Below, piece by piece: positions 20,492-26,040 of a DNA stretch of 35,930 nt (positions are counted from its first letter, which is position 1; every line of letters starts with the position of its first letter). Source of the stretch: an uncultured Caulobacteraceae bacterium. Lineage in GTDB: Bacteria > Pseudomonadota > Alphaproteobacteria > Caulobacterales > Aquidulcibacteraceae. The notes below the pieces were generated by a model that was given only the letters and a program-made list of their open reading frames with translations, was not told the DNA's origin and ran no database searches. Both the position numbers and the translations under genes were made by a program. The stretch covers positions 1-35,930 of the forward strand of contig CAZAGL010000001.1 in assembly GCA_964484435.1 (NCBI GenBank), read 5' to 3'.

Positions 20492-22468
20492 ATGGGCAGC
20501 CCCGTATCCGATTTCGCGCATTTGCAGGAAGATATCGTGCGCCTTGAAAAGGCCACGCATTCCGATCCCTTCTCTGTTCTCGGCCTGCATACCGAGGCGG
20601 ACAATCAGGGCATGAGCGTGCGGGTGTTTCACCCCGGGGCGAGAGCCGTTGAGGCCGTGCTGGGCGGCCAGCGCATCGCGCTGCGTTCGCTGGGCCCCGG
20701 CTTTTTTGCGGGGCTGGTGGCACCCGCTGGCCTGCGTGTTGTGTCCTATCGCCTGCGCATCGAAACCCCAACGGGGTTGGTGGAATGCGAGGATCCCTAT
20801 CGCTTCGGGCTGGTCATCCCCCCCGAGGATGCGATCGATCTCAAAGCCGGGCGCTGCTGGCGGGCGCACAAGGTGCTGGGCGCGCACGAGGCCGAATTGG
20901 AAGGTGTATCGGGGATCAGCTTTGCCGTTTGGGCCCCGACAGCCAGGCGCGTATCCGTGCTCGGCGATTGGAATGGCTGGGAACCGGCGCGCCGCCCCAT
21001 GCGCTTTCGCCATGAAATCGGCGTCTGGGAAATGTTCGAGCCGGGCTTGGCCCCCGGCGCGCCCTACGCCTTCGACATCCTCAGCACGGACGGGCGCCGG
21101 CTGCGAAAGCGCGATCCCTATGCGCGGGCGCTCAGCACGGCGGCACCGGCAGCGGCCATCGCCGCACCAGCCTGCCCGGATGCCTGGGGCGATACGGCCT
21201 GGCTCGCCAAGCGGCGCGACCACAGGGCCGAAAGTGCCTTCACCGCGCTGCACTGCGTGACCGCCGGGGATCATGATCCCCGGCCCGGCGGGGAAAATGC
21301 GCTGCTCGATCGCATCCAACATCTCGGCGGCACGCATCTGTGCCTCATGCAAGCCTGGACGCCTCAGTCAAATGCCAATTGGAACACGGAGCCCCGCGCC
21401 TGGCTCGCCCCCTCGATGGCCTGGGGCGGCCAGCCTGGCCTGCAGCGCCTCATCGATGGCGCGCATGCGCGCGGCCTCGGCATCGTCATCGATTGGCCGA
21501 TCCATGCCTTCAGCGACGAGGCGGAGGGCCTGGCGCGTTTCGACGGCAGCGCAATGTACGAACACGCCAATGCCGCCCGCGCGCTTTCCCCGGATGGCTC
21601 TCTGCGGCGCTTCAATTATGTGCGCTATGAAGCCGCCAATTTCCTGATCTGCGCGGCCTTGTTCTGGCTGGAAGACCTGCATGTGGATGGCTTGTTCCTG
21701 CGCGGCGTGCGCCACGCGCTGCAGTTTCACGCCCCGCTTGGCCACGCGGGCGTCGTCGATGCCGCAGGCGTTGATTTCCTGCGCAGCCTCACCGAATTGG
21801 TGGCCGCGCGCGCCCCCGGTGCCTTTGTGCTGAGCGATGCGCATGGCATCTGGCCCGGCATCAGCGCGCCGACCTGGGCGGGCGGCCTGGGCTGCGCGCG
21901 CAGCACCGTGCCCCATTGGGCGGGCTGGCTGGGCGATCCCGCGCAGCGCATGCTGGCCATGCTGGCTTTGCCCGAGCGCGCCGGCGCGCTGGCCTTCGAA
22001 GATTGGCGCGCGCGCCAATCTTGCCCACCCCGCGGGCAAGAAGCGCGGCTGGCCGCCTTGGTGATGGGCGCCTTGCCCGGCTGGAAAATCTGGCCTGGCG
22101 ATCTGGCCAGCACGGGGGATAGCCAAGACAGCCCGCACGATGTGATCGCCGCCCTCAATCGCGCCCAGCCGCAAGGCGCGTTGAGCCTTCTGGCGCATCC
22201 CGGCGCGCAGCAGGATATGCTGGCCTTCACGCGGGGTGAGAATTTGCTGTGCGCGGCCAATTTTTCGCACACGCAGGCCCGCGCGCATTGCCCCGCGCCG
22301 GGGCCGGGGCCCTATCAGGTCTTGGCGCACAGCCAGCCGGATCGCGGGGCCGCCGGCCAGCCCATCCTGGCGCAAGCCGCGCCCGAAAGCGCGACGGGCT
22401 GGGCCCTGCGCTTGGATCTTGCCCCGCGCAGCGCCTTGGCCGCGCAGCGCATGGGAGCGCAGCCATGA
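20492..22468 (+). CDS. GlgB-like (1,4-alpha-glucan branching enzyme homologue) with a conserved N-terminal/CBM48 region but a degenerate GH13 catalytic domain. It is either a putative pseudoenzyme or a decaying gene.
   Basis: The N-terminal half aligns well with E. coli GlgB from memory ('SDPFSVLGLH', 'EDPYRFG', 'LGAHEAELEGVSGISFAVWAPTARRVSVLGDWNGWE..RRPMRFRHEIGVWEMF', 'RDPYA'). The catalytic half is collinear but eroded. Region I 'DWVPGH' becomes 'DWPIHA'. Region II 'D(A/G)LRVDAV' becomes 'DGLFLRGV', so the nucleophile Asp is Arg. Region III 'MAEEST' becomes 'LSDAHG'. The region IV 'SHDEVVHGK' motif is not recognisable. The frame stays open for 658 codons. The stop overlaps the malQ-fusion start (ATGA). 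Confidence 0.6.
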   Translation: MGSPVSDFAHLQEDIVRLEKATHSDPFSVLGLHTEADNQGMSVRVFHPGARAVEAVLGGQRIALRSLGPGFFAGLVAPAGLRVVSYRLRIETPTGLVECEDPYRFGLVIPPEDAIDLKAGRCWRAHKVLGAHEAELEGVSGISFAVWAPTARRVSVLGDWNGWEPARRPMRFRHEIGVWEMFEPGLAPGAPYAFDILSTDGRRLRKRDPYARALSTAAPAAAIAAPACPDAWGDTAWLAKRRDHRAESAFTALHCVTAGDHDPRPGGENALLDRIQHLGGTHLCLMQAWTPQSNANWNTEPRAWLAPSMAWGGQPGLQRLIDGAHARGLGIVIDWPIHAFSDEAEGLARFDGSAMYEHANAARALSPDGSLRRFNYVRYEAANFLICAALFWLEDLHVDGLFLRGVRHALQFHAPLGHAGVVDAAGVDFLRSLTELVAARAPGAFVLSDAHGIWPGISAPTWAGGLGCARSTVPHWAGWLGDPAQRMLAMLALPERAGALAFEDWRARQSCPPRGQEARLAALVMGALPGWKIWPGDLASTGDSQDSPHDVIAALNRAQPQGALSLLAHPGAQQDMLAFTRGENLLCAANFSHTQARAHCPAPGPGPYQVLAHSQPDRGAAGQPILAQAAPESATGWALRLDLAPRSALAAQRMGAQP

Positions 22469-25400: not shown

Positions 25401-26040
25401 TGGGGAATGGCACGATGTGCTCTCGCCCCGGGCGGTGGAGGGAAACGGCTTTGAGGAAATCCCCGCGCCGCTCAAACACGGCTTGGCCAGCCGCGCCGCC
25501 GATTGGCGCGCGCGCTTTGCCAAGGGGGTGATCGCCCTGGATTTACCGGCACTGGCCGCTTTGGGCGATGGGGTGCTGGCCCGTCTGGAGGCGGGCCCCG
25601 ATCTCGACGCCGCGCTGCTCACGCACACAGGCCTTGACTGGGCGCAATGGCGCACGGATCGCGGCGCGCTGTGCCCTGTCGGCGGGGCGTTCGCCGCGAT
25701 GCTTTGGGGGGCGCTGGATCGCTGCGCGGGCCTGCGCTTTGGCCCTGGCCAGCGCCTCGATGCGGCTTTGTGCCGGGCCGATCACACCCGCAATGAGCGT
25801 GCGTTTGCCCATCGCCTGCTCTTGGCCATCACCGCCGGCCCTTGGGATGCCCCCGCCTGCCTGGCCCGCGCGCTGATGCTGGAGGCGATCTGCGCCTTCG
25901 TGGCCGGGCCCTATCGCATGGCCGGCGATTTGGATCTGGTGCACTGCATCGCGGCGGCGGGCGGGGCCGAGGCGCTCGGCCCGCTTTCCCCGGCTGCGGT
26001 GCGGGCGCGGATCGAGGCCGTGCTGCGCGGCTTGGAGTAA
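22465..26040 (+). CDS. malQ: Fusion protein: GH77 4-alpha-glucanotransferase (amylomaltase, MalQ) plus a phosphorylase-kinase-alpha/beta-like GH15 (glucoamylase-like) module plus an uncharacterised tail of about 240 aa
   Basis: The start is ATG 22465, with GGGAG 7 nt upstream; the track ORF extends spuriously to 22249. The GH77 part (about 22465-23990) has '[17 protein letters not shown]', 'WQILPLNPT', the nucleophile motif '[10 protein letters not shown]', the acid/base motif '[13 protein letters not shown]' and 'YFGNHDN'. The GH15-like part (about 24020-25310) has '[19 protein letters not shown]', '[30 protein letters not shown]', '[28 protein letters not shown]' and '[32 protein letters not shown]'. 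These match the phosphorylase kinase alpha/beta glucoamylase-like domain as I recall it. No stop or frame change occurs at the junction. Confidence 0.8.
   Translation: [1191 protein letters not shown]

Follow-up and report, generated by a model that had tools for sequence, protein, structure and literature searches.

Subunits alpha and beta in animal phosphorylase kinase (PhK) contain glucoamylase-like domains, which were noted in a 2003 paper cited by the 2024 cryo-electron microscopy study of human PhK, and the latter study still calls their significance unresolved (PMC10978961). Here we describe a gene in which a relative of this PhK module is joined to an amylomaltase. It is found in a 35,930-nucleotide stretch of an uncultured Caulobacteraceae bacterium (GenBank assembly GCA_964484435.1, contig CAZAGL010000001.1), which in its full length is called the window. 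The gene product, referred to as the fusion, has an N-terminal 4-alpha-glucanotransferase domain of glycoside hydrolase family GH77, and its C-terminal ~670-680 residues are a shortened homologue of PhK alpha/beta consisting of the domains D1 and D5. With animal PhK (PHKA1/PHKB; PDB 8JFK, 8JFL, 8Z5x) it has in common the Glu pair of the alpha-subunit D1, the sequence W-E-R-G-x-K and the KPBB_C (D5) tail. However, it lacks D2-D4 and the CaaX motif, and its locus has no gamma kinase or calmodulin partner. Unlike the animal subunits, the fusion is bacterial, is joined to a GH77 domain of active form and is encoded in a maltodextrin catabolic operon.

Closer relatives are unfused bacterial PhK-like proteins such as those of Aquidulcibacter sp. 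(P0128), Piscinibacter defluvii (P0123) and Indioceanicola profundi (P0190), whose D1 is 48-51% and whose D5 core is 35-38% identical to the fusion. They have the same catalytic motifs and operon neighbours (rpiR, glgB, malQ), but they are full-length D1-D5 proteins, separate from MalQ, and their GlgB neighbour is catalytically intact. The Thermus-type amylomaltase MalQ (PDB 1CWY, 1ESW, 2OWC) has no counterpart of the 680-residue C-terminal extension. Fusions of MalQ are known as GlgX/4-alpha-glucanotransferase (NF011083, NF011082), malto-oligosyltrehalose synthase-MalQ (NF011077), GH57-GH77 and GH77-GT35. These share with the present protein the theme of GH77 joined to a second alpha-glucan module, but the partner there is GH13, GH57 or GT35, whereas here it is a GH15 module of PhK type. 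What is new is the joining of GH77 to a PhK-type module, while MalQ fusions to GlgX, TreY, GH57 or glycogen phosphorylase are already known or common. A first-pass annotation, made from the sequence alone, had supposed that this architecture is uncharacterised, and we found it neither in the curated NCBIfam families matching the fusion nor in literature searches. Other GH77 partners seen (P0013-P0120) were GH13, including a form with a cyclomaltodextrinase N-domain (P0013), GH57 and GT35 glycogen phosphorylase (P0041), as well as PF00316, presumably the fructose-1,6-bisphosphatase family, in a 2053-residue protein (P0040) and methyltransferase domains (P0052).

Two further systems resemble the fusion more loosely. 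The best fold match of D1 among classical GH15 enzymes is the isomaltose glucohydrolase of Kribbella flavida (PDB 5Z3A-F, 7C24; Foldseek E 1e-9, TM 0.72 on the target). Both are bare (alpha/alpha)6 barrels without the bacterial N-terminal beta-sandwich, but the Kribbella enzyme, whose characterised specificity is isomaltose, is only ~20% identical, gives no significant sequence match and has neither D5 nor GH77. The eukaryotic glycogen debranching enzyme (GDE, AGL) unites a 4-alpha-glucanotransferase and an (alpha/alpha)6 glucosidase in one polypeptide, using a GH13-type transferase and GH133. Its likeness to the fusion is an analogy in logic, and no homology is implied.

The fusion gene of the window is a single stop-free frame translated into 1191 residues. 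The frame is open upstream to 22249, and the chosen start, ATG 22465, shares bases with the upstream gene's stop codon (ATGA) and fits the N-termini of the homologues. An intact GH77 domain joined to a GH15-type module in one open reading frame (ORF) was what the first-pass annotation had proposed, and translation, Pfam and the alignment of homologues bear this out. The motif blocks quoted in it were all located (RIDHF, residues 306-310; AEDLG, 354-358; GNHDN, 406-410; HAWVRDNCY, 563-571; a 14-residue block, 648-661; GMWERGDK, 700-707; an 11-residue block, 918-928; DLDPLGRR, 941-948), and the Pfam check suggested there matched GH77 and GH15 and, in addition, KPBB_C. Codon-position GC content follows the order third, first, second position (GC3 > GC1 > GC2) uniformly across the junction of the GH77 and PhK-like parts. 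The full-length structure model has a predicted local distance difference test score (pLDDT) of 87.8 and a predicted template modelling score (pTM) of 0.78, with a helical linker. A scan of positions 19000-31500 for promoters and terminators gave counts at chance level and none at the junction.

The GH77 half appears intact and active in form, and disproportionation is predicted from its sequence. Pfam GH77 (PF02446) covers residues 22-494 (E 1.5e-152, 509 bits, cut-off 25), and the 4-alpha-glucanotransferase models NF011080 (582 bits against 477) and TIGR00217 (309 bits against 206) also score above their curated thresholds. Residues 12-509 align end to end with the 500-residue Thermus amylomaltase (2owc/1cwy; E 1e-125). 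The three catalytic motifs assigned at first reading to the N-terminal ~510 residues are all present and aligned with this enzyme, with RIDHF, AEDLG and G.HDN common to both. The nucleophile Asp, the acid/base Glu and the transition-state Asp are in place, and D308, E355 and D409 are invariant across 13 aligned fusions.

The second half had been described as nearer to PhK alpha/beta than to a classical glucoamylase, and our searches agree. Pfam GH15 (PF00723) matches residues 539-948 (E 3.8e-37; 128.6 bits, cut-off 22), although the match spans only positions 16-301 of the 427 in the profile. When residues 511-1191 were searched against PDB sequences, the matches were human PhK alpha (E 6e-91) and human PhK beta (E 7e-66) and no others, with D1 identities of 42% and 36%, respectively. 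Classical GH15 chains in the PDB gave no match even at E <= 10 (phmmer; family profile). The structure prediction that had been recommended yielded a confident, all-helical model of (alpha/alpha)6 type for the C-terminal module (AlphaFold; pLDDT 92.3, pTM 0.93), and Foldseek placed PhK alpha/beta on top, with the whole 681-residue module superposed at TM 0.81-0.83 (normalised to the query). The next matches were GH15 isomaltose glucohydrolase (5z3d/7c24, without N-domain; E 1e-9), dextran dextrinase and the GH15 structure 9ju0, and archaeal amylo-alpha-1,6-glucosidase matched weakly. Profile match, fold and a Glu pair assigned via PhK alpha are thus as in GH15, and D1 is of PhK type.

The putative catalytic residues E703 and E890 align with Glu185 and Glu371 of PhK alpha, which are named as its catalytic pair (PMC10978961); this mapping is via PhK alpha and does not rest on a superposition with an enzyme that has been characterised. 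The two residues do not vary among 89 bacterial family members, nor do WVRDN, WGHLQ.D, RFL.DGHQ and W.QS, and human PhK beta, known to be devoid of catalytic residues, has lost several of these D1 motifs. The early suggestion that the general-acid Glu is retained (WE in MWERG) therefore stands, and it extends to the general base. The loop of residues 702-706 (W-E-R-G-D, 24568-24582), which bears the putative general acid, is the sole segment of the C-terminal model with pLDDT < 50, and it reaches ~61 in the full-length model. Such low confidence in the model may reflect a mobile catalytic loop.

The ~240-residue tail after D1 had been reported to have no recognisable motif. This is correct only for its first ~100 residues (951-1050), which have no clear sequence counterpart in the standalone homologues, whereas the second half is the PhK D5/KPBB_C domain. 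The Pfam match to KPBB_C (PF19292, phosphorylase b kinase C-terminal domain) on residues 1056-1118 is marginal (E 7e-7; 29.1 bits, with the cut-off at 27), but it is backed by structural superposition and by BLASTP of the tail against residues 819-927 of the standalone protein P0128 (38% identity, E 5e-15). Conserved positions of the D5 core are W1059, W1062-R1063, G1067 and the motif ADHT..ER.FA. The ~370 residues matching D2-D4 are missing, so the fusion does not have the five-domain order D1-D5, and its C-terminus (..VLRGLE) lacks a CaaX farnesylation motif. A protein kinase or calmodulin-like gene was seen neither in Pfam scans of chosen ORFs of the window nor among the genes called in related loci. 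Membership in the PhK alpha/beta family is thus partial, as D1 and D5 are present while D2-D4, CaaX and the kinase partner are absent.

We take the structure 1K1Y to be that of the Thermococcus litoralis GH57 enzyme and not of one from GH77, and the fusion has no D2; a link from PhK D2 through 1K1Y to the GH77 half was therefore rejected. The likeness of D2 to this glucanotransferase structure has been described for PhK (supplement of PMC10978961).

The fusion is kept in nature but is rare. Thirteen fusion sequences from independent assemblies (56-91% identity) conserve both domains in one frame, and their linkers differ in length by whole codons only. The combination GH77 + GH15 + KPBB_C occurs in 12 clusters among 5.8 billion proteins, all from metagenome assemblies (Logan, ENA, JGI), and in 1 of 185,579 species-representative genomes, a Hyphomonadaceae metagenome-assembled genome (MAG; JAKFWI01). 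The architecture search proposed at the outset thus showed that this is not a common, characterised family. In JAKFWI01 one part of the gene lies at the end of one contig and the rest at the end of another (L003 11350-11530; L002 1-180), with the break falling precisely in the variable linker. Such a split in the sole species representative would fit two separate genes that were brought into one ORF by chimeric assembly or a sequencing frameshift. However, the GH77 half in JAKFWI01 runs off its contig without a stop, the PhK-like half begins at base 6 without a start codon, and only ~15-20 linker residues are missing. Because of these open ends, the split is read as an assembly break within one gene, probably caused by strain variation or low coverage. 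The 12 other clusters, divergent and from separate assemblies, are continuous with linker indels in frame, the codon-position signal is unbroken through the junction, and the linker is predicted to be structured. An assembly artefact was therefore rejected, and we regard a chimeric or frameshifted ORF as having a negligible chance of being the explanation.

Three N-terminally extended relatives (P0295, P0281, P0301) were considered as additional fusions and rejected; they carry retroviral-protease, ribosomal S6, PRP3 and ILEI domains. In some of these long proteins the ILEI domain lies between the GH15 region and KPBB_C and the N-terminal domains are unrelated. Rather than GH77 fusions, they are probably proteins of eukaryotes or gene models that were run together.

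Relatives of the PhK-like module are themselves numerous, and the scored candidates include 2,370 clusters at E <= 1e-5. An exhaustive search gave 957 representatives (50% identity, E <= 1e-3), including one complete fusion and a 521-residue fragment. The standalone members, of ~950-1150 residues with GH15 and KPBB_C, come from Burkholderiales, Caulobacterales, Rhodospirillales and Halothiobacillaceae, and are named "glycoside hydrolase family 15 protein" by NCBI and "phosphorylase kinase alpha/beta subunit" by JGI. A profile to which they contributed most of the sequences scores 1034 bits against human PhK alpha over residues 4-1170, and 849 bits against PhK beta. The standalone proteins are therefore full-length D1-D5 homologues. 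Descriptions of bacterial PhK alpha/beta homologues or of GH77-GH15 fusions were not found in literature searches.

All seven standalone genes whose surroundings were sampled lie in alpha-glucan, maltose or glucose loci (Table 1). The glucokinase directly downstream of the Halothiobacillaceae gene (L050) fits glucose as the product of the PhK-like protein. Near the gene of Aerophototrophica crusticola (L048 5085-7001), a GH77 fragment of 132 residues lies ~1.5 kb upstream in divergent orientation, with uncalled sequence between, and may be a decaying malQ.

These loci also point to how the fusion arose. In the Caulobacterales MAG L051, MalQ ends in ...AHGRAPQEPGR* and the PhK-like protein begins with MTPPSPADAARLARLEAWRDHVETVFLARQRP; in the linker of the window's protein one can recognise the end of MalQ (..HGRAP) as well as the N-terminal helix of the PhK-like protein (..FLARQ.P). 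Divergence from the Aquidulcibacter pair is alike in the two halves, with 47% identity for GH77 and 48% for D1. As malQ in Caulobacterales either adjoins the PhK-like gene or overlaps it, the fusion is, on this comparison of sequences, an end-to-end join of neighbouring and translationally coupled operon genes, for which a one-base frame change would suffice where the genes overlap. Specific to the fusion clade are the covalent joining, the loss of D2-D4 and, as described below, a dead GlgB partner. Whatever D1 does, we consider the reality of the fusion, this origin and its link to the alpha-glucan pathway to be highly probable.

The operon around the fusion is kept in relatives whose fusion is 56-58% identical, in the order TonB-dependent receptor (divergent) / rpiR - short GlgB-like - fusion - cyclomaltodextrinase - GH97. 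Each of the five related loci examined has the GlgB-like gene upstream of its fusion, and the protein is 631-658 residues long. All four partner proteins compared have Arg in place of the GH13 nucleophile Asp and a deletion of region IV (LSHDEV); the protein of the window has also lost the acid/base Glu. It cannot be classed as a GlgB, having no PF00128 match and NCBIfam scores 4-5 times below the cut-offs. Only ~11 clusters are of this dead type, and they share their contigs with the fusion; the other matches are ordinary GlgB of 720-800 residues. GlgX is present in the unfused operons L042 and L051 and absent from all fusion-type operons examined. Signal peptides are predicted for the cyclomaltodextrinase and GH97, not for the fusion and the pseudo-GlgB.

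The window also carries a TonB-dependent receptor and a major facilitator superfamily (MFS) transporter. A 385-residue ORF directly after GH97 (30233-31390, + strand) has no Pfam match and is kept at the same place in L001 (15238-16371, 377 residues). Two long + strand ORFs, 139-2202 (687 residues) and 16681-18834 (717 residues), likewise have no Pfam match. They are antisense to or overlap genes with clear matches, a pyridine-nucleotide oxidoreductase in the first case and edd and zwf in the second, and are shadow ORFs of the type typical for high-GC DNA.

Table 1. Features of the fusion gene, its operon and related loci. Positions without an L number refer to the window; those with an L number refer to the related locus so labelled.
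Feature	Position or locus	Strand	Basis or remark
Fusion gene, complete, 1191 codons + stop	22465..26040	+	product predicted cytoplasmic (signal peptide not predicted)
GH77 amylomaltase (4-alpha-glucanotransferase) domain, residues 14-510	22504..23994	+	Pfam, NCBIfam, PDB alignment
GH77 catalytic codons	D308 23386-23388; E355 23527-23529; D409 23689-23691	+	motifs RIDHF, AEDLG, GNHDN
Inter-domain linker, residues 511-529	23995..24051	+	alignment; predicted helical, pLDDT 85-94
PhK alpha/beta D1-type GH15-like (alpha/alpha)6 domain, residues 530-950	24052..25314	+	Pfam, PDB, model
Putative general acid E703; putative general base E890	24571-24573; 25132-25134	+	mapped via PhK alpha
Replacement segment of ~100 residues (951-1050) in place of PhK D2-D4	25315..25614	+	folded in models, pLDDT ~90
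PhK C-terminal (KPBB_C / D5-type) domain core, residues 1051-1191	25615..26037	+	Pfam, BLASTP, superposition
RpiR-family regulator, first operon gene	19647..20486	+	Pfam HTH_6; same place in L001, L044, L046 and unfused L042
Catalytically dead GlgB-like partner, 658 residues	20492..22468	+	GlgB_N and CBM48 kept; stop overlaps fusion start
GlgB-like partner in relatives	L001 5454-7430; L044 8035-10008; L046 8109-10004		
Periplasmic cyclomaltodextrinase-type GH13, signal peptide	26151..28064	+	start approximate (ATGs 26151, 26160, 26166); conserved downstream of fusion
Periplasmic GH97 alpha-glucosidase, twin-arginine-type signal peptide	28079..30181	+	directly after cyclomaltodextrinase
eda-glk-edd-zwf cluster, divergent	14199..19071	-	KDPG (2-keto-3-deoxy-6-phosphogluconate) aldolase, glucokinase, 6-phosphogluconate dehydratase, glucose-6-phosphate dehydrogenase
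Unfused locus, Aquidulcibacter	L042		rpiR-glgB-glgX-malQ-PhK-like; malQ ends 5 nt before PhK-like start
Unfused locus, Caulobacterales MAG	L051		glgX-malQ-PhK-like (order glgB-glgX-malQ-PhK-like); malQ/PhK-like ATGA overlap
Unfused locus, Indioceanicola	L043		malQ, glgB, rpiR, GH13 gene and MalK nearby
Unfused locus, Aerophototrophica	L048		GH77 fragment nearby
Unfused loci, Piscinibacter and Sphaerotilus	L041; L049		ABC maltose transporter genes and GH13 enzymes
Unfused locus, Halothiobacillaceae MAG	L050 7001-11285		PhK-like gene, then glucokinase 14 nt later

We propose, with about as much confidence as doubt, that the fusion is a cytoplasmic bifunctional alpha-glucan enzyme that takes maltodextrin to glucose, born of the joining of malQ to a PhK-like gene with loss of D2-D4. 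Maltodextrins would come in via the TonB-dependent receptor, be trimmed by the periplasmic cyclomaltodextrinase and GH97 glucosidase, and the products would be imported to the cytoplasm. There, the GH77 half would convert maltose and short dextrins to glucose and longer chains, from which D1 as an exo-alpha-glucosidase would free further glucose, and glk-zwf-edd-eda would channel the glucose to the Entner-Doudoroff pathway. By analogy with PhK, the D5-type domain probably self-associates or docks the dead GlgB-like protein, which would be the source of glucan binding through its CBM48. Within this scheme, we infer the catalysis and substrate of D1 and the roles of D5 and the pseudo-GlgB.

Whether D1 is catalytic or binds glucan, a choice that the first-pass annotation did not make, is the question on which the alternatives turn. 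Sequence conservation makes catalysis likely, because both Glu residues and the accompanying motifs are invariant in the 89 bacterial members, whereas the non-catalytic human beta subunit has lost several of them, and because the other natural GH77 fusions seen all join alpha-glucan-active catalytic modules (GH13, GH57, GT35). Several points weigh on the other side. Classical glucoamylases, such as that of Aspergillus, have W-E-E where the present subfamily has W-E-R-G-x-K, so that there may be a difference in the +1 subsite and with it in the substrate. Confidence in the model is lowest in the loop around E703, literature searches found no characterised member of the bacterial PhK-like family, and the roles given to D5 and the pseudo-GlgB are drawn from analogy and co-inheritance. 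Furthermore, D1 of human PhK alpha, with an intact-looking site, is inactive on maltose, isomaltose and glycogen (PMC10978961); therefore, conserved residues are no proof of glucoamylase-type activity in this subfamily. GH15 also holds retaining transglucosylases, which are not separable from hydrolases by sequence (PMC12446779). The inactivity of human D1-alpha despite its catalytic residues, together with the binding of acarbose by PhK (PMC10978961), would suit a non-catalytic D1-D5 module that serves in binding of glucan or an acarbose-type ligand, in targeting or in oligomerisation, and that tethers MalQ to glycogen or dextrin or regulates it, possibly with the dead GlgB. This would also fit the poorly ordered catalytic-acid loop, the role of D5 in PhK as a protein-protein interaction domain, and an operon partner that is itself a pseudoenzyme with binding domains only. 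However, mere binding rarely requires both catalytic carboxylates, and in ~90 divergent bacterial sequences these and all motifs of -1-subsite type are invariant, unlike in human beta. Bacteria also have no PhK gamma kinase to scaffold, with none in this locus, and the glucokinase downstream of one standalone homologue suggests a glucose product. A purely binding module thus seems rather doubtful to us.

Two other readings keep D1 catalytic and change its substrate. As in eukaryotic GDE, where a transferase is paired with an (alpha/alpha)6 glucosidase, the fusion might act as a bacterial debranching enzyme, with GH77 moving the maltosyl or maltotriosyl part of a stub and D1 hydrolysing the remaining alpha-1,6-linked glucose. 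The unfused operons hold the direct debrancher of GlgX type between glgB and malQ, and the fusion operons have lost it; moreover, the closest classical GH15 fold is the alpha-1,6-specific isomaltose glucohydrolase, likewise without an N-terminal domain, and the archaeal amylo-alpha-1,6-glucosidase is a weak fold match. We nevertheless find debranching improbable, as human PhK alpha is inactive on isomaltose and glycogen, standalone homologues coexist with GlgX, so that the family is no general substitute for it, and the operon with its TonB-dependent receptor and periplasmic GH13 and GH97 resembles catabolism of imported maltodextrin rather than glycogen turnover. D1 could instead act on another alpha-glucoside, for instance one with an anionic or phosphorylated aglycone, trehalose, kojibiose or nigerose, or be, like dextran dextrinase, a transglucosylase of the retaining kind. 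Next to the acid catalyst stand the invariant Arg and Lys of W-E-R-G-x-K, the human homologue fails on three standard substrates, dextran dextrinase is among the fold matches, and neither the specificity nor even the mechanism of GH15 enzymes can be read from sequence (PMC12446779). However, both in the genome and physically the tight coupling is to MalQ, GlgB, GlgX and maltose transporters rather than to genes for trehalose, the GlgE pathway or compatible solutes, which makes this reading quite improbable. The bifunctional maltodextrin-to-glucose enzyme therefore remains our preferred reading, at the even level of confidence stated above.

Collectively, our results describe a relative of the PhK module welded to an amylomaltase, whose unfused D1-D5 kin are common in Proteobacteria beside malQ, glgB, glgX, maltose transporters or glucokinase. 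From the operon settings of these unfused relatives and from the fusion itself, the native setting of the family is therefore, on genomic evidence, alpha-glucan catabolism. Tentatively, and against what we would bet on, PhK alpha/beta-type proteins may have been ancestrally active alpha-glucan hydrolases working alongside a 4-alpha-glucanotransferase, perhaps in a GDE-like way or on an unusual alpha-glucoside, with the animal subunits as domesticated descendants. If this is true, the fusion of GH77 to D1 and D5, with its dead GlgB partner, would offer a minimal and tractable means of identifying the long-sought ligand or substrate of PhK's glucoamylase-like domain. Small, soluble, kinase-free bacterial proteins are on offer for examining substrate, ligand and the partner of D5. 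If D1 only binds, the fusion would still be a clean case of a gene fusion revealing a functional link, of more modest interest. For microbiology, the maltodextrin loci of Caulobacterales type gain a new, putatively bifunctional architecture along with a pseudo-branching enzyme as its conserved partner.

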